NCBI RefSeq assembly: GCF_032062105.1 | Contig: NW_026926947.1 | Coordinates: forward strand, 1 to 64,000 | Reading direction: 5' to 3' | Length of the DNA: 64,000 nt | Origin: Saccostrea cucullata | Taxonomy: Eukaryota | In this document: one piece after another, positions 2,721 through 58,239 of the stretch | Layout: each line of letters begins with the position of its first letter | Position numbering within the stretch: position 1 is the stretch's first letter | Made by a program: the position numbers and the translations under genes | Notes under the pieces: generated by a model | The model's input: the letters and a program-made list of their open reading frames with translations, nothing else | Databases searched by the model: none | Told to the model about the DNA's origin: nothing

Positions 2721-3435
2721 CTTGGTTACATAATCAGTGGCCACTATTCCATATAGACAAAATGGTTGTAGCCTAAACATCACTTTCTCTGGAATAAAAA
2801 ATTTGGATTGAATAAAGGAGCGGAGAGTTGATAATAAATTGTACGTATTAATTTATTTAGCTGCAAATGCTAAAAAGCATTCTTAGCAATTTGCACGTTC
2901 ATTCCTATCCAATTATGTTTACAGATTTGTTTTATATTATTTTTTGGGATAAAACTGTTCCCTTTGCTGAAAAGGTTTTAAGCCAAATTAACGATACATG
3001 CACGTATATTATATAAAGTGAAATTTTGGCAATGCTTTTTATTTCTGCTTACCGGTTTTAATAAACCTGTCGTAATGTATCCTTTCACTGGCAACACCTT
3101 CTTCTTATTCGATTACATTTTTATTTTATCTCAAATGTATGTTGTTTTTTCATGAATTTTTTTTTAGAAATACACAATATTTGGAAATGCACTGCACAGT
3201 TTATTCAAATGTGTGCATATTTTTTTTTTTCGCAGAAAATTATAAACTTTAATGGTTAACATCGAAAACAAAAATTCACAATATTTTTTTCTACATCTTG
3301 AGGAATTAAAATAAAAAAGTGATTAATTTAATTTTAATCAAAACCTCATTATCTACCTTTAATTCTAATATAAAACAACATATATTGTCTATAGAATTAT
3401 ATTTCAAGCTTGTTTAAAAATACAAAAATTAAAAT

Positions 3436-3690
3436 GGGGTGTGGAGCAGTAGTAGAGCGTCTGCTCTAGAGTCGCAAAGTAAGGAGTTGATTCTTACATC
3501 GCGGGTTCGAATCCCGGGCACTGTGGGACGTGGAGACCGGTTCTTCGGATGTGATCGTATAAACCGAGGACCAGTGTTGCAGTACATAATGATACGACCC
3601 CAATCCCCAATTGCTTTTAAAATGGCTTAGGTGGTATCTGTATATCAGACGATGACAATAAATGTAAACAAAATCAGATCAAATTTTTTT
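3436..3690 (+). mobile_element. Second tRNA-derived SINE family
   Basis: GGGGTGTGGAGCAGTAGTAGAGCG (A-box-like) ... GGGTTCGAATCCC (B box), followed by a non-tRNA body and an A-rich tail. Confidence 0.6.
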
Positions 3691-5096
3691 AAAAGTGTAA
3701 GTAACGTATTGGACTATTTGAATGCTTTATAGTTCCTGGTCTTTTGTAAAGAGTTAAAAGTAAGTGTATTAAAAAATCGAGAAAAAATTCTGCTTCTATG
3801 CTATAAAAACAAGTTTCAAGTGGTAACAAAAAAGAATCAAGTGATACAGAAAAGTTTTTAACAAATAGGTATTGAGTCAGACTGTTAAATGTAAGGGGAA
3901 ATTGTTTTTGAGAAATTCGTGACGGTATGATTTTTAGCGTTACGGTCTTGTTTGGTTTATCCTTTGGTTAAAAAAACACGTTGATTTTCAAAAAATTTAT
4001 GCCAAGATATATTAAATTCATATTTACATCAAAGACAGGTGTTTTTATTACCAAATTTAATTACCTTGTCACTTGCAACTAAATTTTTGAAGAAAAAAAA
4101 TCAATACTTTACACACAAATACTCTATAATAAAAAAGAGTTTCTGATTGATTATATCGCAGTGTTTGGAAATCTGATAATTGCCCTCGAGTCAACAAGGC
4201 AGGTGGTCATTAAATATTTTTAAATATCACACAAACATGTGTTGTTTCTATATACACGTAGCTTAGGAAATGTTCTAATGTTATTGGCTGTATTTGTGTA
4301 CATGACGTGCGAAGTGAAATAAAAACCTAGTTTGCAATTTAGTGCTATGTTTTATATAAACTTCAAAGCTTTGGGCGGCCTTAATGTGGCTTTATATCCT
4401 TGTAGAAGGTTTCGAGTTCATTTAAAAACTCAGGTATGAATGTTTTCCCAACCTCGAAAACTAGTCGTAGCAAGCACTTATGATGTATATTTAGAAATAA
4501 GCACATGTATGCATAACACTATCCACATTGCATTTTTTTTATCCCCTCCAAGTAAAAGCTTATCATATAGAAATCTTATATGCTATAGTGGGCCTCAAAG
4601 ATACCGTGCGTGATTTTTTTAAAGTTTAAAATCCTTTCAATTAGATGATGTGCATGAAAGAAAGCACTTTATACTTAAAGTTATTTTTTATTTACAGTTT
4701 CGTTCCAGAATTGGTAGGAAAAAACAGTTAAAATAAAAATGTACGTTTATCATTCTTTTCTGTACTTTACAAAACTTTCTTTTAAAAAAAAATCATTTTT
4801 TGCTTTGGATTTTTTTGCTGACATTTGACATCTTTGCTTACAATTTCAAATATAAAAACTATAAGTATGCAATATAATGATCTTTTTGATTTAAAAGATC
4901 TTATGCAGTTATCACATTTTTAAGTTGAATTATTGCCTTAAGAGAAAAAAATTGGGGTTTTTTGTTTATTTTAAAATGAAAATTTTAATATATATGTACA
5001 GAATGGGTATACTAATATAATAGATAGAGGCTACAAGGAGAAAGCGTCACTTTAATTAAAAATAGAGTTTCCAGATTCTCTTCTGAAATATCGTCT

Positions 5097-7909
5097 TTAT
5101 GGGACTCCCATGTTATCGAGTTCTCTCTGCATCTGACACACTCCACACGGGCCACAACAAGTCAGAACCATACAGTCATTACAGGCGGATCCCTACAAGT
5201 AATTGTTTGAAAATAAATGTGAAATTAGATGAAAACGAAAAAAAAAAAAAAAAAACTTACCAGAAGATTTTTTTCACACATTAGATCTACATATAGATAT
5301 TCATTATTATATATTTACATTTGCAAATGTTTCCCTTTATATAACACTACTGAAAGCAATGCGTATCTATAACCGTATAAATACAGGTTCCTCGAACGTC
5401 AAAAACGTTCGACGTAATTTCTCAGTGACGTCATAAAGGGTCGACGCGCGTTTAGTGCATTACATACATGCCGAAGGATTTGAAAAATAAAACATTTCAC
5501 ACGTTTAAAGTCACAATCAGGCAAATTTAAAGTATGAATGAGTAACAAATGTAAATATATGTCATAAGATATCATTTTGAACCATCTATCGGGCTATAAA
5601 TACGGGTTGGTACGAGATCTAGTTCATCATAAAGCCCTTCGGGCTGGAATTTGATCTCGTGACCAACCCGTATTTATATCCCGATCATGTTTTAAAATGA
5701 TACCCTATTTCTTAAGAGTGCTTGACATTATAAACCTGAATGCCGCCGATGGTTCTGATTCTACTCCTCAGAACGACAGATCCTCCTTGAACACAATAAG
5801 GCATACAACAGCACTCCCCAGTCCTGGAGGCCACGTTACACAGAGTGCAGGGTAAACAGAAGTATCCAAGTATGCCTATTAAAATAGAATTTATGGATTA
5901 TAACACTATTTGGCAGGTTTATTGACGTGACATGGGTGGGGAATGTTACCTCCACGTGTGCTTCAATCATTTATGAATCATGGCCATCTTTACTTTTTTT
6001 TTTATTATGTTCCCTTGTCTATATATGCCGTCTTTGAATGAATAAAATACATTATACTTTTCTTTCCTGATACCTGGTATATCATCATTAATTTTAGTTT
6101 GAAGCATTTTTGTATGTGATATTTAGATCCAAAGTGCAAATCTTAATTAAATTTTACGCTTCAAAAAGTTTATGTCTGGGCTATTGGTTATGGTTGCTGG
6201 TAATGAAACGATCAGCATTAACTTTGTCTGATATGGCGAAAAATAATCTAAATCAATCTTTCCCCCAAAAAGTTTGTATGTTTGACATTTTTGTTTAGAT
6301 TTGAGTTGACTTCTGATCCCATTTCCTATGATTTTAAAAGGCCCTTGTGTGCTCTTCTCCTTCAATTTTGTATTGAAAATTCCAAAGAGCTTTAAAATTT
6401 GAGCTTTTTTTTACTTGATGTTATCTTCATATTTAATGTATGTAACTATGTATCACGTAAACAAAGTTTACCTCTATATAATTACGTAATTATACATAAT
6501 TATAAATATTTTAAAGGAGTTTAAATGAACAGTGAAGAAATTGAACAGGATATATCTATTTTAAAAAGAAAAAATAACAGTACAAATCGTGAACAGGACA
6601 AATGCTTCAATTTAATTGGGAACGGGTGTTATTGAGAAATGCGCATCCCCGATCGACAAGCCACATTCTGCATTAAAAGAAAAAAAATTAAATGCCCATA
6701 TTTGCCTATTTCTTTCGTGAACTTGTTTGTTTTACACACAATTTGATATCTTGTTCGTGCATCACATTTAGTTTATACATTTCATGCACCATTTCACGTT
6801 TGATCTTTGAAAAGGTATATGGCAAAATATACTTGTATTATTTACTTGACAGAAACATAATCTTGTAAAAGGAAAATATTATGACACTTTCAAACAAATA
6901 TAATGAATAACGAATAGTTTATAAGCTTAAAAGTCCATTAAACGATACAAAATTGGAGCAGCGCAAACACGAAACTCCAAAACATCAGAAGTGGGATAAG
7001 GTGCCATGGAGTAGTGAGCATCCCATGCCCACTGGTCACACCTGCAGTGTGCCCCTTGTTGTGATTGGAAAACATCGGCATAAATCCGGCAACAATTCGT
7101 AATGTAAATAATGGAATAATAGAATAACAATTAATATAAAAAAAAAGTCAGTCAGCATTAGACTAAGTGATAAATTGTATTTGTTGACAAGGTCATTTTG
7201 TCGAACTTACGAACTGCATGATAAATTTACACGAGACTGTTGATATTCATCAACTTGTTTGTCAAAAATTTACCTCGTTTTAGAAATTGTTCATACATCG
7301 AATATGATTTTGCGTACCTAATCGACTGAGAGATATGAACTCCGAATACAAATGATGAAGGTAAATTGCTGTTTAAGTAAAGGCAGTTTACGATTGAAAA
7401 GTTAGAGTCATTACGTTCATCATAAAGCTTGGTTGTTAAATAACCTTGAAGGTCTTTTTCAAGTAAAATATCCAAATATGAAGTAGATGTATAGGATTCT
7501 GTGGTGCCTTTATTTCAAGCTCACCGGGATATATCATATCGACAAAGAATGGAAATAACTATTTTCAATTGACAATACGTCGTTGATATATCTAAATGTC
7601 GAGCCGAAGGACACATCGAAAGATCTCTACACGTGCTCGGTATAAGATTTTGAACGAATTCTGCTTCATAATATAGTTTTTCTAATAAAGGGGCGCGATT
7701 GGTATCCATGGAAATTCGAATTTTTTTGCATCTCTCGACTACACAACTCTTAAACTATTGCAAAATAAAAAGAAACACTTACACGTTTTAATGTCAGAGA
7801 AGCAGTCAAACAGGCCGGTACTCCATTGTCTGTGACCGTAAATGTCCGTCACCTTCAGCCTATTATCTGGAACGCCAGCTGGTTGTTGAACAACTACTGT
7901 AGTTGACAT
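5097..7909 (-). CDS. PLAC8/cornifelin-family protein, copy A (120 aa)
   Basis: Exons 7909-7783 (127 nt), 5875-5736 (140 nt), 5192-5097 (96 nt); all GT-AG and in frame. MSTTVVVQQPAGVPDNRLKVTDIYGHRQWSTGLFDCFSDIKTCILGYFCLPCTLCNVASRTGECCCMPYCVQGGSVVLRSRIRTIGGIQGSACNDCMVLTCCGPCGVCQMQRELDNMGVP*. WSTGLFDC, CxxGxFCxPC, RxxIRxxxGIxGS and DC...C.PC..CQ..REL are PLAC8-domain hallmarks. Confidence 0.93.
5571..5701. repeat. ~130-bp imperfect palindrome (MITE-like) in copy A intron 2
   Basis: ATCATTTTGAA..ATCGGGCTATAAATACGGGTTGGTACGAGATC pairs with GATCTCGTGACCAACCCGTATTTATATCCCGAT..TTAAAATGAT; small inner GCCCTTCGGGC hairpin. Confidence 0.8.
6920..7735 (-). mobile_element. Penelope-like retroelement 3' fragment in copy A intron 1
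   Basis: ORFs 7227..7475 (DILLEKD..GYLTTKLYDERNDSNFSIVN..YLNSNLP....GVHISQSIRYAK) and 7521..7709 (MDTNRAPLL...YEAEFVQ) resemble PLE RT palm/thumb motifs, followed by the family 3' motif. Confidence 0.75.
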
Positions 7910-8254
7910 CTTGGTTTCCTTTGTTTGACGAACTCAAAACTCTGAAACAAAAAAATTAAAATGTAATATATTTGGTGCATTGTGTTTCCCTTTTTTCTTT
8001 TAAAATGAAAAACACAATTTTTTAAAAGATAAAATATTACTATTTCAATGATCTCTTTTATAATCATGTGCGATTTTTAAGAAAATAATTGTTCAATTCT
8101 CGGGAAAAATATAATATTTGATATTAATATGTAAAGTGAATTTTTTGCGAAAAATGGTATATTTTGTAAAAATCTTTCTTTAATAAAAAAAATTATGAAA
8201 TTGAACTGAAACATAAAATATCTATAGCCGTCTTAAGCTAAGATATGCAGAACA

Positions 8255-8430
8255 AACATTACCTTTCTCTGTTTAAAACGTTTTCGAGTGCACCCTATTC
8301 TCGGGGTGTTTGTACTTATGCAGGAAGAGATTTACTGTTTGTTTGTCGCATGGAGACCATCAATTCTATCAGTTTCCTGTCACCAATTAGAATGTTTATA
8401 ATAATAATCATTCCTAAGGTTAATCTACAA
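8255..8430 (-). promoter_or_regulatory. Putative core promoter and short non-coding first exon of copy A
   Basis: Non-coding block highly conserved, in inverted orientation, with 14690-14860 upstream of copy C. TATA-like TGCATAAGTA followed ~50 nt later by an AAG|GTAATG donor (~8262); matching CAG acceptor at ~7943, just upstream of the ATG. Confidence 0.55.
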
Positions 8431-10192
8431 GGAATTTGTCATCAGTTCCCTTCCTCCATACCATTTTTTCTTGTAGACGAAAAACAACAAAGCAAAAACT
8501 ATACAGGTCTAAACTTGATAGTTCGGAAAAAGTTATAAAATATACGGTCAAAATGCATGCTAATATTAGAAAACCAGGTAAAATAAGGTATTTCAAAACA
8601 ACTAATTTTTATGTGTTGACTGAAGACTTGTATACTTTAAAAAAACAGTGTTTATTTAGGTGATAAATGTCGAAGACCATCTTGCTCTACTGCAAAACTT
8701 GCCACTTTAAATCTCTTTCTTTGAGATTAAGAGAATACAAAATGAAAAGTCAAAGCTCTCACTGATATTACCCTACAGATAAAAATAAAGACACAAATTG
8801 AATCTTACAAAGTTGATAATCACTTTATACAAGAACAAAGCATTTGCGTCAGTTAAATATTTTTTGTGATCTTCACGCCCTTACTCTGAATTCCACAGTT
8901 GTATTCTCAAACAGGACGTAAAACAATCATTCCATCTATACCTTTTAATTAAGACCAGAAAAAAAATATAAATTCTCAAGCTAAATTTTATTTCCTCTTT
9001 TAATTTATTTTTATAACCATATCAGCCGATGTACGTAGATGATTTTCTATCAATATAATCTAATGAATGAAAATTTGCAGAATTAATTTTACTGAAGGAA
9101 TCAAAATTGATTTTTGTTGTTTAAAAGTTCTTAATGTAAAAAAAAAGCATGATTTCTTTAAGCTGCTTGTTATAATCAAATCAATTGATGTAGTACTTCT
9201 TAATGATTTAAGACATCACGATGAAAAATATCTAGTTCGGCTTCATTTGATTCTCTATATTATATATTACTTTTATAATACATCTCCTAAAGCAATCTAT
9301 TATCGAGTTATTAACCTTGTTAGAAATGTAGAACGCCTAGATTTGACAAATACAAATTTAAGTGTTGAGGCACTATTATCACTTTAAATAAGGAACGTAG
9401 AAATTTAAAAGTGTCTTGTGATAAAGGTGAATTTTTAACGCGTTAAAACCTGATTTTTAAAACATAATTTCGGTATTAATTGACAACGAACTTTTTTGAC
9501 TTGTTTACTATCTTCTGATATAACCTAAACATTATTACTAAAATGGCGTTTCAATGCATTTATTTGAGCTGCAAATATTAATACATTTGAAAAAATGGCA
9601 CATTCGTTATATTCAACCAACGTTTTCTGCTATAAAAGTGGGTCTAAACATAGGTTTTATGGAGTGATTCTTGTTCATAAAGTTAACAAATAAACCTCAA
9701 CGGATTTTTCACTTTATAAAAATAAATCGAAATACTTTGCTGATTCCCTGAAAATCACCGTAAAAAGACATGCCCTGTAAAAAGGTGAGTCAGTTTGAAG
9801 AACTGATACACAGCTGCTTCTCGGAAAGTGGACTTGTTCTTGGCGTGGGAACTTGAATCTAGCTGACTCCCTCAGTGATATACTTTAAATGCAAACTCTT
9901 CTACATTTTCTGCACCATTATTTTCAATTTTGACAACTGAGTGTTACACTTTCCGATCATCAAGAAAGAACTTCTTAAAACATTCTGTACTATTAGTATT
10001 CATTTATTTGTAATCAAAACTGAATATTTGTTTTGTGAGCATATAAAATAACAGAGCTTATTCATAATTGATATAAAAGTTTATAAAAAGATACAGTAGA
10101 ATTGCAGTAAATACATGAACAGACAAAAGAAACTGACAAGATAGTTCTTTACAGAAAATGGTCACTAAATTGTGATCCAAATCAATTGTTCT

Positions 10193-11603
10193 TCATTTTG
10201 GAACTCCCATGTTATCAAGTTCCCGCTGCATCTGACACACGGCGCACGGTCCTAACAACGACAAAATCACACAATCCATACAGGCTGTACCCTGTTAAAA
10301 AGACACAGAAACCGTTAATAACAGAAAGTATGACCAAAAGATTTTCATAACAAAGAAATCAACAACATTATTGTTTAGAGTAAATTAAAGAAATATAATT
10401 TTGGGCTTTTTTATTTACCTGGATGCCTCCTATGGTTCTGGTCCTGCTCCTTAAAACAACCGTTCCTCCCTGAACACAGTAAGGCATACAGCAGCACTCC
10501 CCAGTCCTTGAGGCAACTGAACATACTGTACAAGGGAGGCAGAAGAAACCGAGGAGACCTGAAAATAACATATATCTTTCTTTTTATTTAGTATGACAAT
10601 GTAGATTGATCATACAGTTTCAAGATAATTTTAATCCGACTTACTTGTGTACATCATTGTATTCATTGTATTGATGATTGATTTGACTATTGATTGTATT
10701 GATGATTGATTTTGACTATTGATTGTATTGGTGATTGATTTGACTATTAATCAATAAAGCCATGACAAAAACTGCCAATCATTCTTAATCTATTTTGTCG
10801 ACATAATGCATTTGTCACATGTATATTACGCACAGCGATGAAGTTTTCCTTTTGTTTCTTTGAAACATCGATCAAAGAAAGAAAAAAAAATATGTAATTT
10901 ATTTCTTAAATCAATGTTAATCTTTTTTTAGAAAAAAAGATTTTTGTTTTTTTTTCGCAATAAATCGCAAATGATCCAATTCGAAAAACATTACCAAAAC
11001 GAGTCATTAAAATTAGAGGCCAAACCTGCATTCATTTCACATAATACTTCCAGGTTGCAAACACGAAGTTCAACGTTAAATATCAATAACAATATATAAT
11101 TTATGTAACATCATCAACATTTATTTAAAATTAGAAATGATTACCAACCTGTTTCACAGACTTTTTATTTAGAAATGTCAGAGTGTGGAAGTTTTTGTTT
11201 AAGTTTAAAGTTAAATCGCTTGTTCTTTAACAGAAAATATCAAACTTTTGTTGGGTAATTATATCTTCTAAAAAATCTTTGTTAAGATTGTGTTGCACAG
11301 TTTATCCAAATAAATAAATCTAAAAGATGAATTTATGATATATACTTTTAAGATTCAATGTATGACGTCATAAAGACCAGGATGTATTTTCAAAACGTTC
11401 ATTTATGATCTGTATTATTAGTTTCTTCGTTGCTAATGCAACCTAAGACGTAAAACAGGCATGATAAAAAGCTTACATGACTTGAGATCGTCAAAGCAGT
11501 CAAACAACCCTGTGCTCCAGTCTCTGTGGCCCTCGATCCCTGTAACCATCAGAGGATAACCAGAACCGGCTGTCGGCTGCTGGACTACAACAGTGGTCGA
11601 CAT
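10193..11603 (-). CDS. PLAC8/cornifelin-family protein, copy B (121 aa)
   Basis: Exons 11603-11477, 10558-10419, 10291-10193; GT-AG, open frame. MSTTVVVQQPTAGSGYPLMVTGIEGHRDWSTGLFDCFDDLKSCLLGFFCLPCTVCSVASRTGECCCMPYCVQGGTVVLRSRTRTIGGIQGTACMDCVILSLLGPCAVCQMQRELDNMGVPK*. Exon 2 lies within ORF 10368..10571. Confidence 0.9.
10657..10750. repeat. Short tandem repeat, ~28-nt unit x3
   Basis: TTGTATTGATGATTGATTTGACTATTGA repeated about 3 times in copy B intron 1; absent from copy D intron 1. Confidence 0.8.
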
Positions 11604-11937
11604 TTTCTAGAGCCTTTGACGATAAGTCTGTTTTGAAAATCAGGAATCTCTATTATAATGAATCATTGAATGTTATAAAGTAATGATATTCTTGTTCAAA
11701 CCAAGGCGTTGTAGAATAATAGCATGTGTTCTATTTCAAAATTCATAAGAAACACAAGTTTTATTATAATTTTCAATCAAGAGGAATGGGTATGCTACCA
11801 TGGGAAAACCAACAAACAATCCTTGCTATATTACATCCCGGTAAGTTTTACGAATTATAGAGGGTAACTTTGGACATTTTAACCTTTGGGAAATCCTTGT
11901 CTGCCAGGTGTATTGCAAAAATCATAACCACAAAACC

Positions 11938-13557
11938 ATGTAAAGACGTCACCATATACCTATGAAGGGCTTCAAATTTTGGCCTTTACTCGGCACTCAG
12001 GCCCATTGAGCAGTGAGGGATCATTATCGTGCCAACGCCTGTCGTGAAAAAGGGACCTCGGTTTTTAAGTTCCCATCCGAAAGATCCGCAACTTTCACAT
12101 TAAGTGCCGAGTGCATTGCGAAGGAACAGTTGTTCCTCATTTTTATCGACTTAGGTCAGTCTCGGCCGAGATATGAACTCACAACCTCCCGATGACGGAG
12201 CAAGCGTTCTACCAACTAAGCTACCATGAACGGTCAATTAATGTAATGTAAATAATGGCCTAACAATTAATATGAAAAACGCCAGTCAGCATTCAACTAA
12301 ATGATAAATTGTATTTGTTGACAAGGTCATTATGTCGACCATAGAAGTTTCAATATGCATGATGGCATTAAACGAGACTGTTGGTATTCTTGTTTCATCA
12401 ACTTGTTTGTCAATAATTTTCTTCGTTTTAGAAATTGGTCATACGGAGAACATGATTTTGCGTTTCGAATCGATTGAAAGATGTCATCTCCGTATACAGG
12501 TGAGGAAGGTAAATTGATGCCTAAGTAAAGGAAGTTTATGATTGAAAAAAGTCATCAAGTTTATCATAAAGCATGTTTGTTAGATAACCATTAATGTCCT
12601 AAGTAAAATATCCAAAAATGAAGCAGATGTATAAGACTCTGTGGTGCCTTTATTTCAAGCTCACTAGAATATAGCTTATCGACAAAAGAATAGAAATAAC
12701 TATTGACAATTGACAATACCTTTTCGTATATCTAAATGTCGAGTTGAAGGATACATCGAATGATCTTGTCTAATGAAGTACCTGGGTATAACATTTTGAA
12801 CAAATTTTGTTTCATATGCATACAAATATAATTTCGCTATTAAAGGGGTGTAATTGGTATTCATGGGAATTCTAATTGATTGTTGGGACATTTTTTGCAT
12901 CTCTGGGTAACATTATCAGTGGCCAATATTCCACATAGACAAAAATGTTGTAGCCTAAACATCACTTTCTCTGGAATAAAAAATTGGATTGAATTAAGGA
13001 GAGGAGAGTTGATAATAAATCGTACGTATCAATTCATTAAGTTGCAAATGCTAAAAAGCATTCTTAGCAATTTGCACGTTCATACCTATCCAATTATGTT
13101 TGCAGTTTTGTTATATATTAATTTTTTGGGATAAAACTATTCCCTATGCTGAAAAGGTTTTAAGCCAAAGTTCAAGTGTTATTAATATTAAGTCTCTATC
13201 AGAAAATTTCATCGAAAGCAACATGTGTCCATAATAGTTGCAGGAAACGAAATTGATATCATGAATTATATTTCGTTAGTAGGAAATTCAACGTACTGAT
13301 CGAATTTTGATTATTCGGAAGGAAGTTTCCATATTTTCTAAGAAAATTTGTAGGATGAGTTAAGAGTTATGTTTTGTTAAGTGGTCTTCACATCACGATA
13401 TAAACTGTAAATATATCTATAATATTATTTTCACTAATCCAATCAAAGGAATTAATTGTAGAAGTCTGAATTTGCAAAAAATGCTCCCTTTGACCCCCAT
13501 CTCAGCTCGCCTTATACCTATCGGGTGGAACCTCTTTTTCTTTCAACACTTTGCACT
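11938..13557. repeat. Left arm of ~1.6-kb inverted repeat (truncated SINE + Penelope-like fragment + further repeat-like DNA)
   Basis: Reverse complement of 15408-17034, roughly 90% by eye with long exact runs such as GTTTTGTTAAGTGGTCTTCACATCACGATATAAACTGTAAAT. 11938-13168 is also a direct repeat of 1735-2987. Confidence 0.9.
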
Positions 13558-14200
13558 GCATTTTTAAAGGAATCATGCATTTTTCTTAAGATCTTTTAAA
13601 CAACAAACATCAAATCTGATTCCTTCAGTAAAATTAATTCTGCAATTTTGCATTAATAAGATTAAATTGATAGAAAATCGTCTATGTACATCGGCTGATA
13701 TAGTGGTTAAAATAGATTAAAAGAGTAAATGAAATTTACCTTGAGGATTTTAAAAACTTTATTCTTGTCTCAGTTAGAGGTTTAGATTGATTGAATGTTT
13801 TACGTTCTGTTTGAGAATGCAACTGTATAAATGTAAGAGTGACCAAGTAAAATTAACACATTTCTGTAATTCAGAGAAAAGGAGTTTAACTGATGCGAAT
13901 GCTTTGTTCTTGATAAAAGTCAACTTTGTAAGATTCAAATTGTGTTTTTATTTCATTTGTAAGGTAAAATCAGTGAAAGCTATATTTTTTTATCCTCTCA
14001 AGCTAAAATAAGTGATTTCAAGTATCAAGTTTGGCAGTAGAGCAAGATTGGCTGCGACATAAATCATCTACATAAAAACTGGTATGTTCGAAAAATTCAA
14101 GTCATCAATCAACACATGATAATAGTTGTTTTAGAATACCTTACTTGACCTGTTTAGTATTGTTTTATATATATTTTCATCGCATATTTAGGGAGTATTG

Positions 14201-14672
14201 TATGGAATCCGGATAGGGCCAGCTCAGTATCGCATCATCGCACCATCGAGGTTAAGGTCGATAGAGCGATGAAGAGATAATTCGATGACAATGAAGTGAT
14301 GGTGCGATAACGATGAAGTGATGGTGCGAAAGCGCAATGACGATGATGCTATGGCACGACAATGTGATGACGATGGTGCGATAATGCGATGACGCGATGG
14401 TGCGATAGTAATGACACAATGGTGCAATGACAATGGTGCGATAGTACGATGACGATGAAGCGATATTCACTATCGCTCAACCGTGTTATAGCACAATCCT
14501 CATGGCATTATCGCGCCATAGCATCATCGTCATCGCGCTATCGCATCCTAGCTTCATCGTTATCGCACCACCGTTTCATCGTCATAGCGCCATCGCGTTA
14601 TCGCGCCATCGACATTTAAGTTGATGCTCGATGGTGCGATAGTGAACTTTTTGGCCCTATCCGGATTCCATA
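14201..14672. mobile_element. Non-autonomous IS3EU-like DNA transposon (MITE) with internal CGAT/ATCG-rich repeats
   Basis: Perfect 21-bp TIR TATGGAATCCGGATAGGGCCA / TGGCCCTATCCGGATTCCATA and 6-bp TSD GTATTG (14195-14200, 14673-14678). TAYGG termini plus a 6-bp TSD are the IS3EU signature. Confidence 0.85.
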
Positions 14673-14689
14673 GTATTGATGAACATTTC

Positions 14690-14860
14690 TTGCTGATTAA
14701 CCTTAGGAATAATAATTATTATAAACATTCTAATTGGTGAAAGGAAACTGATAGAATTGATGGTCTCTAGGCGACAAACAGTAAATCTCTTCCTGCATAA
14801 GTACCAACACCCCGAGAATAGGGTGCATTTGTAAACGTTTTAAACAAGGAAAGGTAATGT
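14690..14860 (+). promoter_or_regulatory. Putative core promoter and short non-coding first exon of copy C
   Basis: TGCATAAGTA at 14794-14803, donor GAAAG|GTAATG after 14853, acceptor TTTCAG at 15149; conserved with the copy A upstream block. Confidence 0.55.
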
Positions 14861-15181
14861 TCTTTTTTATTTAAAAACGCTTATAAAAATTTAATGTTCA
14901 ATAGTTTCTTTTATAAAAGAAATATTTTACATTCTATCCCAAATTAAAAAAAAATGATGCATTTTTATATCTTTTTTTCCAAAATAGAATATTTTTTCTT
15001 TAAAACTGTACATGTTTTTCAAAGAGATTTATGAATATTATTATTTCATTTCTAAAAAAAATGCGTGTTTTATCTAATTTACAAAGAAGCAAAAGGAAAA
15101 CCCGAATACATTAAATACTTTATATATAAAAATTCTTTTTCAGTTTCAGAGGTTTGAGTTCGTCAAAAAAAGAACACGAGG

Positions 15182-18100
15182 ATGTCAACTACAGTAGTTG
15201 TTCAACAACCCACGGGTGTTCAAGATAATCGGCTGATGGTGACGGACATTCTCGGTCATAGGCAATGGAGTACCGGCCTGTTTGACTGCTTCTCAGACAT
15301 TAAAATGTGTAAGTGTTTCTGTTTTGGCAATAGTTTAACATTGTACGTATCGTATATTTCTCTCTCTGCTAAAGTGTAAGCTAGTGTGAAGTCACAGATT
15401 GAACATGAGGTGCAAAGTGGTGATAAAAAAAGAAGCTTCCTTCCGATAGGTATTTTGCGGGTTGGGGAAGGGGTCAAAGGGAGCTTTTTTTTTTTTTTTT
15501 ACAAATTCGGACTTCTACAATAAATCATTTTAATTTGATTATTAAAAATAATATTATAGACACATTTACAGTTTATATCGTGATGTGAAGACCACTTAAC
15601 AAAACAGAACTCTCAACTCATACTACTTTTCTTCGAAAATATTGAAACTTTCTTGACGAATAATAAAAATTCGATCAGTACGTTGAATTTCCTACTAACG
15701 AAATATAATTCATGATATCAATTTCGTTTCCTGCAATTATTATGGACACCTGTTGCTTTTGATGAAATTTTCTGAAAGAGACTTAATATGAATAACTTTG
15801 ACTTAAAACCTTTTCAGCGAAGGGAATAGTTTTATCCCAAAAAATTAATATAAAACAAAACTGCAAACATAATTATATAGGTATGAACGTGCAAATTGCT
15901 AAGAATGCTTTATAGCATTTGCAACTTAATAAATTAATACGTACGATTTATTATCAACTCTCCGCCCCTTTATTCAATCCAATGTTTTATTCCAGAGAAA
16001 GTGATGTTTAGGCTACAACTTTTTTGTCTATGTGGAATATTGGCCACTGATAATGTAACCCAGAGATGCAAAAAATGTCCCAACAATCAATTGGAATTCC
16101 CATGGATACCAATATTACCCCTTCAATAGCGAAACTATATTTATGTGCATATGAAACAAAATTTGTTCAAAATGTTATATAGTACCTACGTACGTCATTA
16201 GACAAGATCATTCGATGTATCTTTCAACTCGACCTTAAGATATATCAACAAAGTATTGTTAATTGTCAAAAATTATTTCCATTCTTTTTTCGATAAGATC
16301 TATTTCAGTGAGCTTGAAATAAAGGCACTACACAGTCTTATACATCTGTTTCATATTTGGATATTTTACTCAGAAAGGACATTAATGGTCATCTAACAAA
16401 CATGCTTTATGAAAAACTTGATGACTTTTTTCAATCATAAACTTCCTTTACTTAGGCATCAATTTACCTTCCTCACCTGTATATGGAGATGACATCTTTC
16501 AATCGATTCGAAACGCAAAATCATGTTCTCCGTATGACCAATTTCTAAAACGAAGAAAATTATTGACGAACAAGTTGATGAAACAAGAATACCAACAGTC
16601 TCGTTAAAATCATCATGCATATTGTAAGTTCTATGGTGTATATAATGACCCTTGTCAACAAATACACTTTATCATTTAGTTGAATGCTGACTGGCGTTTT
16701 TATTTTAATTGTTAGGCCATTATTTACATTACAAATTGACCGTTCATGTCAGCTTACTTGGTAGAGCGCTCGCTCCGTCATCGAGAGGTTATGAGTTCAT
16801 ATCTCGGCCGCGACTGACCTAAGTCGATAAAAATGAGGAACAACTGTTCCTTCGCCATGCGCTCGGCACTTGATTTGAAAGTTGTGGATCTTTTGGAGGG
16901 GAACTTAAAAACCGAGATCCCTTGTCACGGCAGGCGTGGGCACGATAATGATCCCTCACTGCTCAATGGGCCTGAGTGCCGAGTAAAGGCCAAAATTTGA
17001 AGCCCTTCGCAGATATATGGTGACGTCTTTACATGAGTGAAAAATTCTCGAACTGGACGTAAAACAAAAAACAATCAATCAGTCAATTACAGAACGTGTT
17101 CTCGTCGGATTGTTGTTGCGAATCACTCCATTAATACCAATTCCAAGTTTAGATGACGTTTGTCCTAATCACAATAAGTACCTTTATTTTTTTTTAAATA
17201 TGAATATATCCTGTTCATTATCGTCACTGTTCATTTAAACTGGTTTAAGATTCATTTAAAGTCCCGTACGTAATTATAAAAGGTAAACTTTGTTTACCTG
17301 ATATGCATACATACGTTAAATACTTGTACGACGATAACATCAAAACAAAATGTCAAAAGCTCCTTGGAATATAATACAAAATTGGAGGAGCAGAGAAGAC
17401 ACGGGCCTGTTAAAATAATATACAGTATAGGAAATGAAATGAGAAACCAACTCAATTCTTAACAAAATAGCAAACATACAAAACTTTTTGAGGGTGCAGG
17501 TTGATTTTATTATTTTTTTTTTTTTGGTCATATCAGACAAGGTAAATGTTTATCATTTCTTCACCAGCAATAACCAATAACCAATAACCCTGGCAAACTT
17601 TTTGAAGCGTAAAATTTATCAATGTTTGCACTTTGAATCTAAATATCACAAACACTGTTTTTGTAAGCATGTTTTATTCCAGACAGATGCAGAAAGGATA
17701 CAGACGTACATGTTAATGGTGACATTCTAAGTATCATGGAAGAAAAGTTTAATGTATTTTATTTACTCAAAGACGGTACATATAGTCAATGGAACATAAT
17801 AAAGAGCTATAAAGATAACCATGATTCAGAAATAATTGAACCACACGTGGAGGTAATTAACATTCCCCACCCATGTCACCACAATAAACCTGCTAAATAG
17901 TATTATAATCTATCATCTCTATTTTTATAGGCCTACTGGGACTTTGCTGTACACCCTGTGTTCTGTGTCACGTGGCCTCCAGGACGGGGGAGTGCTGCTG
18001 TATGCCTCACTGTATCTTGGGAGGATCTGTCATTCTGAGGAGCAGAATCAGAACCATCGGCGGCATTCAGGTCTATAATGTCAAACACTCATAATAATGG

Positions 18101-18305
18101 TTCCTTACATTAAATAAATTTTTGAAAAAAAAATCCTCTGATTAGTTGTTTGATTAATTTGTTTCACATATCTTTTTATTTTCAAGTTACTTTCAAATAT
18201 TGCTTGTAGGGATCCGCCTGCAATGACTGTATAGTTCTGTCTCATTGTGGCCCGTGTGCAGTGTGTCAGATGGAGAGAGAACTCGACAATATGGGAGTCC
18301 CATAA
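15182..18305 (+). CDS. PLAC8/cornifelin-family protein, copy C (120 aa; only plus-strand copy)
   Basis: Exons 15182-15308, 17931-18070, 18210-18305; GT-AG, open frame. MSTTVVVQQPTGVQDNRLMVTDILGHRQWSTGLFDCFSDIKMCLLGLCCTPCVLCHVASRTGECCCMPHCILGGSVILRSRIRTIGGIQGSACNDCIVLSHCGPCAVCQMERELDNMGVP*. AATAAA at 18421-18426. Confidence 0.93.
15408..17085. repeat. Right arm of the inverted repeat, inside copy C intron 1; includes a PLE fragment (~16065-16730, +) and a full SINE (16738-17085, +)
   Basis: Reverse complement of 11938-13557; the SINE has A/B boxes and a CAAT tail. Confidence 0.9.
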
Positions 18306-19139
18306 AGGCAGCATCTCACAAGAGAAACTGGCAGTTCTGTTTTTAATATTTTGATGCTTTCTCTGTGTAACTTCTATCTATCATGTATTTGTATACAAAT
18401 TCTATACATTCCATTGTACAAATAAACGAAAGACACTTATTTTTCTGTTAGGACAGGACGTAATCGAATAGAGGTGGTAACGGCATATAATTTTTGAATT
18501 CAGAAAGATCATTGTTGATTAATTATTCTTATCTATCATTTTATATTTCATCATAAATCCTATTTTATGACATCGAATGCAAATTATGTAAAAGGGTTTG
18601 AAATAAAAGTTGTAGATGTAGATGCAAATGCATCGTCTGAAGCCACGGTCCAGAGTCCGCATAGTTCTCTCCTACCCGTGGTTGCTAAATCACAAAAAGT
18701 GTCGTAGTCTTGAATATTTACGGGTGTCTATTGGACGATATTTGTATATTCTTTCAATGACAAGTTTTGTTACCATCGCAATTGAAATCAACAATTTACA
18801 TCAGCAGTATTCGTACACTGCGATTTGGTAATGAAAGGTCGCATCAGAGTTCATTATCCGACTATACTTTACTCGCATTGGTCAATATTTTAAGGTATAA
18901 AACAATCTCTTTTAATTCAACCATGGCCAGAATGGGAGAGAATCGTTCATTTTGGCCGTGGTTTGAGATGATGATGAAAATGTAAATAATAGGAAAACAT
19001 TCAAAGGACAAGTTTCGGCGAATGTCTTAAACAATGGGGGAGATCAGAATTTGTTCCCTTTGTACATGTAACCAATTTACCAGTTAGAAGGACTTGTTAA
19101 AAAAAAACAAAAAAAAAACTCAAAATCTGATTGAAATGA

Positions 19140-19930: not shown

Positions 19931-20840
19931 TTGACGAAATTAATTAGGTTACATAATGCCAATTTCGTATATCCCTCATTCAATGCCATAAATACTTGAA
20001 ATCTATCTTTTTGTCATAAAAATTCTTAAGTCAACATTAATTACATTCTGATATAAGTATAAATAGTTACTCTAACAAAAAAATACTTCAACTCTCGAAC
20101 CCACAGATATTGTTATGCTAAAACATAACATCTACAAAATATATGAGTTTAAGAAATAAAATTTTTTTGGGCAGTTGTGTTACAGCTTATATTCATCAAA
20201 ATGATGCAAATTTTTGCATGGTATCAGCGATATCGATTTATATTGATAAAGTAAGGAATCCTTAGAGGTATGATAATCAACTTAACTAATGCAGTAGAGA
20301 TTGAAGAATGGATCTTTCAAAAAGTGAATAAGTCTGTTGTTTTGATAGGCAATCAAAATCTACTTAATCTGATTATAAAACAATATATATGACAAACGTA
20401 ATTATATTTGAATAGAGATTAAAATCAAGGACTAGATATTTTACAGCGTGAAGTCCAAATTATCAATAGGTACTATACTACAAGTATTCTTTTTATTCTC
20501 TACTCAAATATAATTACTTTTGTTATGCATCTATAAAAAACGTTCTATTTTCAAGTTATTAACTTTGTTAGAAATAAATAACGCCTAGATCTAACAATTG
20601 CTTTAAGTGTCGAGGGCACCTGTATCACTTTAAATAAGGAACGTGTTAAATGTAGATTTTAAGGACTTGAAAACCTGATTTTCAAAACATAATTTCGCTA
20701 TCAAATTGGCTTCTTTGACTTGTTTACTTTTATCTGAAAGAATCTGAATGTTATTACAAAATGGCGTATTCAACATAATCAAACTACTTTTTTTCTAACA
20801 AAAGCAGGTCCGTCCAAAGGGGTTTATTGGAGTAGTTCTT

Positions 20841-21282
20841 TTTTTAAAGAGTTTATTTTAACTTTCACACAAATTACACAAATACAAAACAGACGTATAT
20901 ATGAATAAGTATACAAGAAAGTATGAAATAAAGCAAAAAACAAACAAAGAGGTAATATAAACTAGTGTGAAAGTTTATGTGGAGAGAGAGGGAGAAATAG
21001 AAAGGGAAAAAACGAGAATGAGAGAGGGAGAAAAGATGAGAGGGCACACACTTTATTGAATAAGTAACGGTAAGAAAATTTTTAAAGTTTTTAAACTATT
21101 TCCTGCCAGTGTCTTTCAAATTCATCATATTTACAATTTTTCAACAAAAGAAATTTTTCTATTCTAATTCTTTCAGTAAGAGCATTTTTCAAACTCTCAA
21201 CGTTTAATTTTATAGTTTTGGCATACTTACTTGCAAAAATACATTGTTTTATAATCAGAATAAAAAGATTTTCTAACTTTTA
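20841..21282 (-). mobile_element. 5'-truncated L1/Tx1-clade LINE 3' end
   Basis: Minus-strand frame ENLFILIIKQCIFASKYAKTIKLNVESLKNALTERIRIEKFLLLKNCKYDEFERHWQEIV* resembles an L1/Tx1 ORF2 C-terminus. It is followed by a TC-rich UTR and A-rich tail, with an imperfect GGAGT(AG)TTCT duplication at both ends. Absent at the paralogous site downstream of copy B (~9670). Confidence 0.65.
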
Positions 21283-21617
21283 GGAGTTTCTGTTTATGAA
21301 TTTACAAAAAAAATTGATTGCCTATCAAAACAAACAGACTTGTTCACCATTATTTTCAGTTTGACATGTGAACGATACACTTTTCCATCATCAAAATATA
21401 ATTCTTATAATATTCTGTACTATTAATATTTATTTTTTTATAATTAGAACTAAATATTTGTTTTGTGAGCATATAAAACAACAGCGTTTTTTTTTATAAC
21501 TAATATACAAGTTTAAAACAGGAAGCAGTATTGCAGTAAGTACAATCAAAGTAACTGATAAGATAGTCCTTTAACGATAATGATCATGCACTGAATTGTG
21601 ATCCGATTAATTGTTCT

Positions 21618-30990: not shown

Positions 30991-32261
30991 GAAGGAGTGT
31001 CTTTTAGAAACCTATCCTAAAGTCTTGCTTTGGAGTGAGCCTCCCCAACCAGAGAAGACATTTACTTTAGAATTATACCAATGACACAACCGAAAGTAAA
31101 TCCCCTCCTAATTCATACACTGGATGAGGAATTATAAAATTACTATTATAAAAAAAACAGAAAATATTACAGAATGTGGGAGACCTATATGTAATTTTGC
31201 TAAAAATATGGACTTTGATGATACTTCTATATGAAACTGATCACTGGTAATGTTACAAAGTTTCGGTTTATTGAGTGGAAAATTTGTTAAAAAACTTTAT
31301 TACAACTATATCAAACTCTAGATCTGTAGGAAGGAAATATCTTGTTTACTGTTTAAATTTTCGTTGTTTTCAAGCGAATTTATGTCCACCACGAAATGCA
31401 ATTTTCCACATACTACTGAACAATTCTTAATCCACGAAATCAAATCCCCATGAACCTTTATATTTTCCTCAAAGGAGGAAAATTTGACCCCTCGAAAATA
31501 TGTGATTTTACTGTATTCCAAAAGTAATTAATTTACGGAAATTAAAGATTTAAAAATCATTAAAAAGAGCAGGAAAAAATAATTTTAATTGATGAAAATT
31601 CTGCCTTTGTATTTGTGCTAATAGAGTTCCTGTTTGGTATACCACATGGATGGCACTTAATGAGCTGCCTTTACCTGACGAGCTTAAAATAAGAAAATAT
31701 ATGTAAGACAACAACTATTTTTATATATGTCAACAATGTACGCACGCTCTTTCACTCTCACGTTCATTCTTGTTTCTTTTAGGCAAATATCTTCGACTGT
31801 CCCATGTTTGGAAACTGTGTAAAATTAAGATAGGCTATCTTTCTATATAATACCAGCAAGGGTCGCTTAGAATTATGGAATAAAGCAAAAGCAAATAACC
31901 AGATTCCAGCACTTTCTAAAACAGAATAAGGTAAATGTACAAGTTTTCTAAACTATTTTTTTCTGTTTTCTATGAGCAGTGTCCTTAGACAAGAAATGAG
32001 CGTCTGGATATCTATTAATTTAGATTATTCAATCATATCATCTGCACGAAATTGCCATGTGTATTTCATGACCAAATGTAATTTATATTATGCGTATTTT
32101 ATTCCAAAGTAAACGAAAAAAAAAACACAGTAATTATTATTGAAATTAATTTTTAGGTTGAGGATCACAAAGCCAGTAAAGATGATTTAACTCAGGTTAG
32201 GCTTGAAAAAGCATAGAAGCATAAGAGAACATAAAGGTAATAATCTTTGGAGTAGCTGTCT

Positions 32262-35095
32262 TTATGGAACTCCCATGTTATCAAGTTCTCTCTGCATCTG
32301 ACACACTCCACACGGACCACAACAAGTCAGAACCATACAGTCATTACAGGCGGATCCCTGTATAGAAAGTTGATATTTTCAAATATGAGTACTTTACAAT
32401 TAATGTACTAACTTATACATTGATTTTCATACGAGTTTTAATTTTCCCTGGTAAGTTTTATTTTACCTGGATGCCACCAATAGTTCTGATCCTACTTCTC
32501 ATTAGAACGGTTCCTCCCGAGACACAGAAAGGCATAAGGCAACACTCTCCAGTTCTAGAGGCCAAGTTGCAAACGGCACACGGAAAGCAGAAGTTTCCAA
32601 TGAGGCCTTATTAAAAAAAATGCATATTACATGTATTGGTAGTTGATTATCAATATTATTGTTAATTCTTTATAAGTATTTGATTTCAATAAATAAATCA
32701 TCGTTTGTTCTTTTGTTAAACAGGAATGTGTTATTAAATAAAAACCAATTTTAAAAGAATCTTTTTACCCTTGATTTTTTTATGCCGAAACAAAAAATTA
32801 AACCATGATGACCGCCAGGTTGATCTTAAATATTGATTTTAATTGATCCAAAAATAATGCCATAGCTCCTGTTTATCATTCATTATTACATTGGAAGACT
32901 GAGCATCCTCTATCAACTGGTCATACCCGCCATGGGCTTCTTGTGATAATCGATCAAGTAGAAATATTTTTGTTGGTAAATAATGACCTTACAATTAGTA
33001 TCATAAACATTCGTTCGCATTCGATTTAATGATAGATTGTATTAGCTTACAAAGTCATTGTATCGATCATATAGCTTTCCAAATGATGAATTAAAAAACG
33101 AGACAGGTTGATATCATTGTTTCAGCAAATATTTACATTTCTACTTAAAACTTTTTTCTCTCTGTCAAAACTCTTTACACGTTATATGAGTTGAGTTCTT
33201 GAGAAATAAACACGAGTTTAAATATCGCCAAGTGAAAGGTCAAGTGCTTTACGTGCATGTAAATCTCATGCAGCTGTCTTTATGTGTGACGTCAATGAGC
33301 GGGGATTAATGATTTTGTCATTGGATGTCTCGTCTTTTTTAAATATATCACCCATTTTCGTATCTTTAGTTTCAATTTCATTTTATATATAATGTTAATA
33401 TAAGAAATCAGTGTCTCGTTCGTTTGATTTGCCAGGCACATCAACGATAGTTGGAAACGTGAGATGATTTATATATAATTGGCTTCGCCTGTTTTAAAAA
33501 TTAACCCACATTTCCAATGAGACTTACCTTAAAAGCTAAACAGTAATTTCTTTATTATCTTTTAAGTGGTTAAATTTTCTGACAAGTGACATATATTGTA
33601 TAAAAAATAAGGTCTTTTAAAACAGGACTGTTGATATTCTTGTTGCCTCGTTTTGGAAATTTTTCATAGACGTAGCATACTCTTCAGTATCTTGCAAATC
33701 AACTAGTAAATATAAACTCTGTATGCAAGTGTTAAATATGAATTCTTGCAAGGGAAGTAAACGATGGAAAAGTAAAAGTACTCATTTTATTATAAAGTTT
33801 TGCTGTTAGGTCAGCTTTAAAGTCAAGTATAAAATAGATGAGTCAGACTCTGTGATATTTACTATTTCACGTTTACTGGAATATACATCGAGTTGACATG
33901 AATGGAATTTACTATTGTAAATCAAAAAAAAGTTGCAGTTGTTGTGTCTAAATGTCGGGATGAAGGTAAGCAATGCAAGCGTTTTTATATTCTTATATTT
34001 AATTTAGGGTACGGATGTAAAATCTGCTTCGTATGAATAACAAGAGGCCCATGGGCCTTATAGGTCACCTGCGCATTATGCAACAACTTTCAAATGATTA
34101 AAGTTTGTTCATGTTTTAAGCCAGATGATATGGCATTCACAATTTTGAAATAGTCACCATTGCTAATAATAACTAAACACTTAGCATTTGTTTAGTTTGT
34201 TTACTTAATACCCATAAGCAGGGTAGGGGAACAAAAAATACATTTCGACTAATCAGTAATATTCAGCAATAATCAGAAGTGCCCCTACCACACATGAACC
34301 CCTGATCCTAGGTATACACATTGCACAATTTTTGAAAAGGCACACTTGCTTATCAAAAATGTTTGATTAATAATACGCAAGTGAGTTAAGGCTACATATG
34401 GAGGTTTCTATGCGATATGATTTTGTTGATGTAATTTATAACCTTGAATGGGAGAGAACAATGATGTCATACTATGACGTCATAATGTACACTTCTATTA
34501 ATAAACTGTGGGTACTAAGTATGTATAAGAAAATCTATTTGAACTTTCTCTGTACATAAAATATACAACTTATGAATTTTTATTAGCTCATTTGCATAGA
34601 AATATCCATATTTAGCCTGAACTCACTTGCGTAAGGAACAGATTTCAAACAATTAATTATTTTCAGTACATAAGTAGAGTCCCCACCCCAGCCTTCTTAG
34701 GTATCCCTGACCCAAGGGGCCTTGAAATTCACAATTCTGGAGAAGCCCTCATAACTATATAGGTAGTTTATCTGCTTATTATACCCAGGAGTAAGGAGAA
34801 GATTTTCATAGATGTAATGTATTTTCACTATATAATCATTAGAGCCGCGCCCTAACACCATAAGCCCTGGAAGAGGCACTCTTGCTCATCATAACTATGT
34901 ACTTAGTTAGTTTATTCAATAGAGGCAGAGAAAAAGATTTTCAAAGAATTAATGCATTTTTACCATATAACCAATAGAGCCCCACCCTAACACCAGAACC
35001 CTTGGCCCTGAGGCCATAACATTCAAAATTCTGGAAGAGGCACTCTTGCTTTTCATAACTATGTACATAGTTAGTTTAATTGATACCTAGAAGGT

Positions 35096-35131
<36 letters not shown>

Positions 35132-36471
35132 CATATAATCAATAAAGCCCCGTCCTTACACCAGAACCCCTGACCCTGGGGCCATGAAATTCACCATTTT
35201 GCTAGATGCACTCTTGCTCATAACTATGTACTTAATTAGTTTATTTTAACACTCAGGAAAGAAGAAGATTTTCTAAGAAAGAATGCATTTTCACTATATA
35301 ATCAATAGTGCCCCGCCCTAACACCAGATAAACCTTGGGCTCACAAAATTCACAATTTAGGTAGGGGCACTCTTCTTCTTCAAAACTATGTACTTAGTTA
35401 GTTTATTTAATACCTAGGAGTAGAGAAGATTTTCAAAGAAATAATGCATTTTCACCATATAATCAATAGAGCCCCGCCCTAACACCAGAACCCCTGACCC
35501 TGGCGCCACAAAATTCACAATTTTGGTAGATGCACTCTATCTCATCACAACGTCGTTCTTACTTAGTTTATTTAATACCCAGGAGCAGAGGAGAAGATTT
35601 TCAAAGAAATAATGCATTTTCACTATATAATCAATAGAGCCCCGCCCTTACACCTGAACCCCTGACCCTGGGGCTATGAATTTCACAATTTTGGTAGAGC
35701 ACTCAATGCTGATTACAATCATACCAACAGTTTGCCTGCTTGATGTCCAGGAGTAAAGAAGAAGATTTTTATAGATTGCACTAATTTTAGTGGTTTTGGC
35801 CCCACGCCCGAGGCCCCTGGGGGCAGGGACCATGAAATTCCCAATTTTTGTTCCCCTTCACCCACAGATGCTACATCCAAAATTGGTTGAAATTGGTTCA
35901 GCGGTTTCAGGGAAGAAGCTGAAAATGTTTAAATCTTAACGCACGACGACGGACGAAAACAGACAGCAATAGGTCACCTGAGTTTACTCAGGTGACCTGA
36001 TAAAAAAGAGTATTTTTTAATTCTTTAAAGGAAATGGTTAAATATGGTGTTAAAAGTCAAGTGTTTATATTTTATTGATTTTGCTAAAATTTGAAATGAA
36101 ATTTGATAAAATTTAGAACAAGAGATAAAAAATAATGGTCATATCCCTTCATTCTTAAGATTTTCTTTAAAAATTTTACTATATAATTAAGTAGATATAT
36201 CTATGGATATCAATTGTTTTAATATCTCACAAAGGTAAAGAGATGAAAATCATATTTCATATTGAAAATTTAACCGAGTACTATTATTTCTGTTACATTA
36301 CGATTTATACACCTTGCTGTGGCTGGTCAAAATGTAACACTTACACGATTTAATGTCTGAGCAGCAATCAAAAAGGCCTGTACTCCACTTCCTATGGCCT
36401 TCAATGGAAGTCACTATCAGCCTCGTATCGGGAATGGTTGATGGTTGTTGAACAACTACCATAGTGGACAT
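32262..36471 (-). CDS. PLAC8/cornifelin-family protein, copy E (120 aa)
   Basis: Exons 36471-36345, 32606-32467, 32357-32262. MSTMVVVQQPSTIPDTRLIVTSIEGHRKWSTGLFDCCSDIKSCLIGNFCFPCAVCNLASRTGECCLMPFCVSGGTVLMRSRIRTIGGIQGSACNDCMVLTCCGPCGVCQMQRELDNMGVP*. Confidence 0.92.
34039..36004 (-). mobile_element. Helentron-associated (HINE-like) element with diverged ~165-170-bp satellite array, in copy E intron 1
   Basis: 5' palindrome AGGTCACCTGAGT-TT-ACTCAGGTGACCT (35971-35998), adjacent GACG/GACA microsatellite, about 6 diverged monomers (34790-35800), 3' subTIR and GGCCCATGGGCC-TCTTGTT end at 34039-34070. Confidence 0.85.
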
Positions 36472-52400: not shown

Positions 52401-52803
52401 CACTTTTTTGCAAAAAAAAAGTCATTGAACATAGGGGCGTAGATTAGCCCCCTCCCTCGAACCGTTAGTCCTTGTCAACATTATTTGCAGTACTCTCAGA
52501 ACTTTGATTATTTTACTGGTTCAAGTCAAAACGAAAGTGAAAATGCAAAAATGACGTAACTGTCGATTAAGAGCCAGAACGAGGCAAATGTGTATTGAAT
52601 TTTGTCGGTGCTGTAATACACATTCAAAAATATGATTTGGGTTATATTTACGACTTGAGTAGTTGTGATAATCGACAAAAGACTCTTTAAATTTTAAAAG
52701 AAGAGTGTCAGATTAACGTTTGTTGAATTCAAGTGGACAAGGACTTTGAAATGGCGAATATTTAATGGATATTTCGCGCGATTTGTTATTTATTTTGTAA
52801 AAG

Positions 52804-58202: not shown

Positions 58203-58239
<37 letters not shown>

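Follow-up and report, generated by a model that had tools for sequence, protein, structure and literature searches.

Inverted repeats around the promoter and first coding exon of a cornifelin-like gene in Saccostrea cucullata: the probable scar of an old duplication-inversion

The stretch of DNA under study (the window, 64,000 nucleotides, C9084:1-64000, from the 1.17 Gb genome assembly of the oyster Saccostrea cucullata in 23,869 contigs) contains eight cornifelin/PLAC8 gene copies, which were located by tblastn and are labelled Z, A, B, C, D, E, F and G from left to right, C being the only plus-strand copy among the eight. The upstream region and first coding exon of C occupy a spacer between two inverted-repeat arms, termed L and R. 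Based on the findings of this study, the left arm is most probably a truncated mirror copy of the repeat-filled first intron of C, likely produced by a single old template-switch (fold-back) duplication-inversion, and the cassette is likely to be fixed and not a working switch. A first-pass annotation of this DNA had proposed a promoter or exon switch between the opposed gene bodies and, as its fallback, the scar of the event that inverted C. The fallback is borne out by a native R, a truncated L and a readable right breakpoint, while the switch is contradicted by arms that consist of intron sequence derived from repeats, diverge by 8% at scattered sites and show no excess of shared derived changes, and by the lack of a recombinase-sized open reading frame (ORF) in the window. 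The elements of the cassette and its arms are as follows.

11938-13560, no strand: left arm L, a copy of C intron-1 sequence oriented like the minus-strand paralogs
13561-15407, plus strand: spacer with the upstream region of C (collinear in reverse with A 9161-7743), an element like a MITE (a miniature transposable element with inverted repeats), a predicted non-coding exon and the first coding exon
14201-14672, no strand: palindromic 472-bp multi-copy (MITE-like) element inside the spacer
14690-14853, plus strand: predicted non-coding exon of C, a block conserved in the alignment with A and ending in the donor AAG/GTAATG, start approximate
15150-15308, plus strand: coding exon 1 of C (gene model), ATG at 15182, phase-1 donor
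15399-17035, no strand: right arm R, a native part of C intron 1 with both flanks collinear with paralog A
15351-16052, no strand: TE2, a ~700-bp dispersed repeat that is complete in R and cut in L
16053-16738, no strand: fragment of TE1, a dispersed repeat
16739-17087, plus strand: dispersed repeat in the arm, resembling a short interspersed nuclear element (SINE)
1677-2987, no strand: third arm copy T, oriented as L, upstream of the B-like pseudogene Z

The inverted repeat is genuine and far beyond chance. The arms had been described as reverse complements and both alignment methods agree on this at 90% identity with gaps: blastn aligns 11937-13567 with 17035-15399 at 89.96% over 1653 columns, and a global alignment yields 1481 matches, 126 mismatches and 39 gap columns (92.2% ungapped identity). 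The divergence of ~8% is scattered and the longest perfect run between the arms is 83 bp, so that the long near-identical tract that would accompany recurrent inversion is absent; at 92% identity with a best tract of this length frequent flipping is unlikely, as the annotation had argued. The gene models likewise place the C(+) bodies to the right and B(-) to the left of the cassette. The earlier inventory of the arms was correct for L and R and had overlooked the copy at 1677-2987 and a partial fourth copy on contig C21730, which is interrupted, is 87-90% alike and is accompanied by two pieces matching the window at 26.1-26.8 kb.

The entire arm consists of dispersed repeats. Dispersed copies of TE2 show 70-80% identity (best 40 of 294 candidates scored) and those of the SINE-like repeat 85-86% (best 40 of 5282 candidates scored). 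The latter, which we take to be a SINE from its tRNA-like head and CAAT tail, recognised with no tool, matches no Rfam family at gathering score. TE1 is also present in intron 1 of A, at the equivalent place and in the same orientation (7093-7722, 76%). L falls short of R at both ends: on the outer side ~57 bp of the SINE-like tail are missing, and on the inner side about 50-57 bp of TE2. Its outer end abuts the sequence upstream of B, where a stretch still kept in Z and D has been lost. One arm is thus native (R) and the other is a duplicate of local sequence, cut at both ends (L). The full three-part composite was found only in L, R and T, all in the window (3 of 40 scored matches); since it is confined to this contig, L is a local duplicate. 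Both L and T are oriented like the intron of A, as expected for remnants of a minus-strand C. Independent data came from organism A, a relative or divergent lineage (best word share with the window 0.19), of which example unique pieces differ from the window at between 4/247 and 30/380 letters, the arms differing by 7.8%. One of its contigs (462 bp) spans the outer edge of R.

The spacer contains the C upstream region and exons as annotated, though not 'almost exactly' these only, as 472 of its 1847 bp are the palindromic element and ~57 bp are the end of TE2. The non-coding exon is supported by its conservation with A and stands as a prediction, no read confirming it. None of the candidates examined (29/29) was a second near-identical copy of the spacer, which is therefore single-copy and inverted relative to its flanks. 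In an organism-A DNA contig (depth 108) position 14107 is joined to 12601 with five letters between, which may reflect a TE1 insertion or another rearrangement.

The inversion of C can be read at both of its ends by comparison with the uninverted paralog A, and two further features are needed here.

4842-9161, minus strand: paralog A with flanks, the uninverted reference for C
20385-20528, no strand: right breakpoint of the C inversion, an inverted copy of A-equivalent 9191-9283 beside a direct copy resuming at 9242

Between 13564 (A 9161) and 18547 (A 4842), C is collinear with the reversed A. At the right end, 20385-20475 corresponds to A-equivalent 9191-9283 reversed, scoring 84 where 300 shuffles reached at most 51, and the other non-repeat matches to this segment in the genome are local ones only. 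As the inverted block begins at A 9161 and ends with A 9191-9283 reversed, both ends lie within 30 bp of one ancestral point. The right breakpoint contains a second small inverted repeat (37/42 identical, with divergence similar to that of the arms), and both block ends are thus shaped as an inverted repeat around an inverted spacer. Microhomology of 1-3 bp was noted by eye at 11938 and 13560, at junctions that are eroded by age and with no chance control. One organism-A contig, from a run whose RNA label is a guess, covers 20162-20997 unbroken with the right junction included; the junction is therefore older than the split of that lineage from this genome. The far 3' flank of C (18540-19130, 19940-20215) showed no homology above shuffles to 2988-4850 or 1011-1680, which leaves the start of the duplicated unit unplaced. 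The match between 9680-9754 and 20283-20213 was dropped as part of the breakpoint, being a dispersed repeat, and that between 3314-3419 and 20319-20424 was not used. Contigs of run X6 cover 17532-18062, i.e. C intron 1 and exon 2 unspliced, and 20162-21535, 1.4 kb past the stop of D; these possibly represent a long 3' untranslated region of D toward C, or DNA in the library.

A history that would account for this arrangement begins with an ancestral C on the minus strand, like A. Copying would have proceeded through intron 1, jumped ~1.85 kb ahead onto the opposite strand at the far end of the promoter, run back through the entire gene, switched again over a short distance at 20385-20528 and then resumed, the outcome being an inverted repeat around an inverted spacer. 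Later deletion would have removed the old exons 2-3 on the left together with the sequence upstream of B, so that L alone remains. A whole-unit tandem duplication with inversion, or the insertion of a circular unit, gives the same junctions and is here indistinguishable from a template switch. Within the four-point model, the switch type 3-1-2-4 is reported to yield inverted repeats flanking an inverted spacer (PMC5453318), and both block ends here have the form of this product. Fold-back inverted duplications are described as retaining single-copy spacers of 766-70,466 bp (PMC3907307), a range that includes the 1.85-kb single-copy spacer found here; the known cases presented there are mostly terminal, megabase-sized and pathogenic, and after a plain fold-back the spacer would face left, requiring one later flip. 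The permuted unit is also compatible with circular intermediates of the kind treated in PMC7450558. In the account of staggered breaks in PMC1885836, inverted duplicates were a by-product of the inversion in 17 of 29 Drosophila inversions; the likeness is that they are by-product and not cause, although the duplicates there lie at opposite inversion ends, whereas R lies inside the inverted block.

Several points weigh against this history. The 3-1-2-4 events described in PMC5453318 are short, whereas here ~5-7 kb would have been copied back, with a second switch and later deletions, and a 7-kb event is an extrapolation. The ancestral uninverted order is deduced, from sequence, on paralog A only. 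The junctions of L (11938, 13560) were seen in no independent contig among the best 8 of 18,972 pieces listed, and no listed piece extends across a whole arm. The chief result against a pure one-off history is that arm ancestry is patchy. Over 1224 columns the three-way distances are star-like (L-R 0.069, L-T 0.073, T-R 0.081), and with sites polarised by 13-22 dispersed copies as outgroups per segment (8 unpolarisable sites excluded) the 28 informative shared-derived sites divide into 9 for L with R (LR), 9 for L with T (LT) and 10 for R with T (RT), showing no overall homogenisation of the arms. Along the arm, the outer segment favours LT (6/9), the middle RT (7/8) and the inner LR (7/11), with p=0.008 in a three-segment permutation; weaker tests of patchiness gave p=0.115 (runs test), p=0.04 (LT-to-RT split alone) and p=0.18 (unpolarised). 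Sequence has thus passed between the copies in the past, and part of this pattern is what an old flip would leave. The change from outer to middle segment would be explained by an old flip after the split of T, by gene conversion among at least 4 copies, or by recombined ancestral alleles. As the inner LR-sharing segment is itself 6.8% diverged, any exchange is old. In a weaker form, better supported than present-day flipping, the cassette could have lain between two identical C bodies just after the duplication and have flipped freely then; if true, this would explain both the patchiness of arm ancestry and the speed at which C exon 2 has evolved.

With P0005 as outgroup, this exon (17931-18070) carries 10 amino acid changes found in C alone and 0 found in A alone (binomial p=0.002, the exon having been chosen after looking), and several of the changes involve two substitutions in one codon; its pace suggests relaxed or positive selection after the inversion. 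Past orphaning of C exons 2-3 was also tested by counts of nonsynonymous (N) and synonymous (S) changes: C exons 2+3 show 16N:5S against 5N:7S in A (p=0.067), and p=0.32 against C exon 1, which is not decisive.

The consequences of a flip depend on the exons that would be brought together.

17931-18070, plus strand: exon 2 of C (gene model; P0001)
18210-18305, plus strand: exon 3 of C to stop (gene model; P0001)
11477-11649, minus strand: exon 1 of B, ATG at 11603, likely acceptor 11649
10419-10558, minus strand: exon 2 of B (gene model; P0007)
10193-10291, minus strand: exon 3 of B to stop (gene model)

The proposal that C exon 1 would join B exon 2 in frame proved correct, since C exon 1 with B exons 2-3 forms an open frame of 121 aa. 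The exon-1 donor is in phase 1 and the exon-2 donor in phase 0 in all five modelled paralogs (5/5), and as the phase match is common to all of them it is no sign of design. It had also been suggested that the non-coding exon could splice into B exon 1. Acceptor 11649 is plausible for this, its AG being kept in B, D and Z, and the alignment of an RNA-type contig ends at the homologous base of D, 22818, leaving 5 letters over. The flipped default path, however, runs from C exon 1 to B exon 1 and stops at codon 43, so that a productive flipped message requires the skipping of one of these two exons, and a flip would orphan C exons 2-3.

The ORF of B is intact, with 2 amino acid differences from D, and the native upstream sequence of the gene ends at 11938. 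A profile built on the non-coding exon of A and C detected no copy upstream of B, of D or of other paralogs, and a promoter of B was thus not located; B (10193-11938) may be a promoterless young pseudogene. Expression was assessed in three RNA runs of organism A, of which 44-47% each were read. Sites 10283 and 10286 distinguish B from D, 10270 being unsuitable as its change is private to the D-type gene of organism A. The B letter at 10286 occurred in 0/1,163, 0/325 and 0/484 reads (0/1,972 in total) in these runs, where C also looks nearly silent, and a non-D letter at 10283 in 1/1,163, 0/325 and 1/484, while a B-type contig is present in organism-A DNA. Reads on C exon 1 continue into A exon 2 (94 reads in run X9, agreement 0.98), and the C promoter may therefore be off in organism A. 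These runs give no sign of B or of a C/B chimera, a weak test given that the C promoter is possibly off and that L was not demonstrated in organism A; the joints 15308->10558 and 14853->11649 were not among the best-supported 15 of 155 and 15 of 2,738, which says little.

Given these data, it is unlikely, if still conceivable, that the arms recombine occasionally and that a flipped allele at low frequency aims the C promoter at B. Human inverted repeats of 1.6 kb carry the polymorphic inversion HsInv0347 (PMC3961182, where the arm identity is not given for it), the mosaic arm ancestry records past exchange, and B retains an intact ORF, with its own upstream sequence apparently lost and B-type reads absent from the RNA of a relative. 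Against this stand the 8% divergence with a best perfect run of 83 bp, the divergence of the LR-sharing segment itself, the orphaning of C exons 2-3 and the stop at codon 43. The human breakpoints refined in PMC3961182 fall in high-identity regions, e.g. a proposed 782-bp tract of 99.9% within 94% repeats, and yeast Alu repeats at 94% and 86% identity are reported to lower rearrangement ~15- and 58-fold, respectively (PMC10164571, a different assay). Distinctly less probable is that the cassette is still flipping in the germ line or soma, with the flipped C promoter as the sole promoter of a silent, intact B.

Bacterial invertible promoters and intragenic inversions resemble this locus in concept, a promoter or part of a coding region being able to serve either of two bodies; inversion there is driven by an enzyme between short repeats, neither of which was found in the window. 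The flip/flop of yeast reportedly involves recurrent inversions through recombination between inverted repeats. The human recurrent inversions described in PMC3961182 have kilobase inverted repeats around parts of genes, as here, and HsInv0241 swaps the first exons of AQP12A/B; they involve high-identity tracts and both orientations have been seen, whereas here the arms are at 92% and one orientation is known.

Two further explanations are very improbable. An assembly artefact, or the joining of two alleles, might be suspected from the fragmented assembly and from the L junctions, unseen in independent data; it is countered by the 126 scattered substitutions between the arms, by 35 sites private to L in 1224 columns, by 10 sites at which L is ancestral where R and T are derived, and by the match of allele-like contigs of the cluster at 96-99%. 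Two independent transposon insertions facing each other by chance would suit the repeat make-up of the arms and are largely refuted, as the composite with its shared junctions is limited to this cluster, the arms are 90% alike mutually and 70-86% like dispersed copies, and L, R and T are jointly derived at 136 of 1141 polarisable sites. Finally, a programmed or somatic promoter or exon switch by a site-specific recombinase has in its favour only the geometry, a promoter and exon 1 between opposed phase-compatible bodies, and is scarcely credible given that phase compatibility extends to all paralogs, that the arms are decaying repeat sequence, that no short perfect repeat pair occurs at the spacer ends and that, in a search confined to the window (a spliced or distant gene being possible), none of the 3 ORFs of at least 130 aa is recombinase-like by eye.

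Concerning the cluster itself, C exon 1 matches P0001 ('cornifelin homolog A-like [Saccostrea cucullata]') at 100%, and the spliced models of A, B, C and D are identical letter for letter to the annotated P0006, P0007, P0001 and P0003, respectively. Introns end in GT/AG in models C(+), B(-), A(-), D(-) and E(-). The four proteins tested (4/4) score 56-64 bits against PF04749, above the gathering cut-off of 34.4 bits, and belong to the PLAC8/cornifelin family, of which this locus represents a local tandem expansion with one copy inverted. Contig bases 64,001-84,000, beyond the window, hold no further cornifelin exons. Z (593-1011) is a B-like pseudogene whose start codon is deleted, 722 joining the position that corresponds to B 11640; the part upstream is 92.6% like B and the intron only ~80%, which suggests a mosaic. 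Exon 3 of A and E (5093-5194, 32258-32359) is 97% identical, exons 1-2 only 72-77%, and this likeness suggests, on sequence grounds, recent gene conversion or exon exchange between the paralogs. Elsewhere in the assembly, C21265 holds a D allele joined to C7416-like sequence, C8251 an intact paralog, C7416 a paralog with a stop in exon 1 and C3850 a 99% copy of window 44.7-51.4 kb; together with C21730, these pieces suggest that the cluster is structurally variable or partly uncollapsed. Tandem arrays occupy 56577-58205, 59844-60753, 62772-63998 and 34705-35775, with units of ~166, 146, 147 and 165 bp, respectively, and exon-like ORFs at 52801-55301 belong to an unrelated plus-strand gene to the right of the cluster.

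A literature search, which was not exhaustive, found no paper on this oyster cluster by title or abstract and, among the 15 listed of 33 papers, no animal invertible-promoter system. If the cassette were still flipping, the locus would alternate between making protein C and making protein B or a C/B chimera, an isoform switch by DNA inversion in an animal. The importance of the locus hinges on whether both orientations exist, as it would then represent a promoter/first-exon switch through DNA inversion in an animal. Read as a scar, the locus offers a well-resolved natural example of gene reversal in a tandem cluster with both breakpoints readable, and is a product of ordinary genome evolution.

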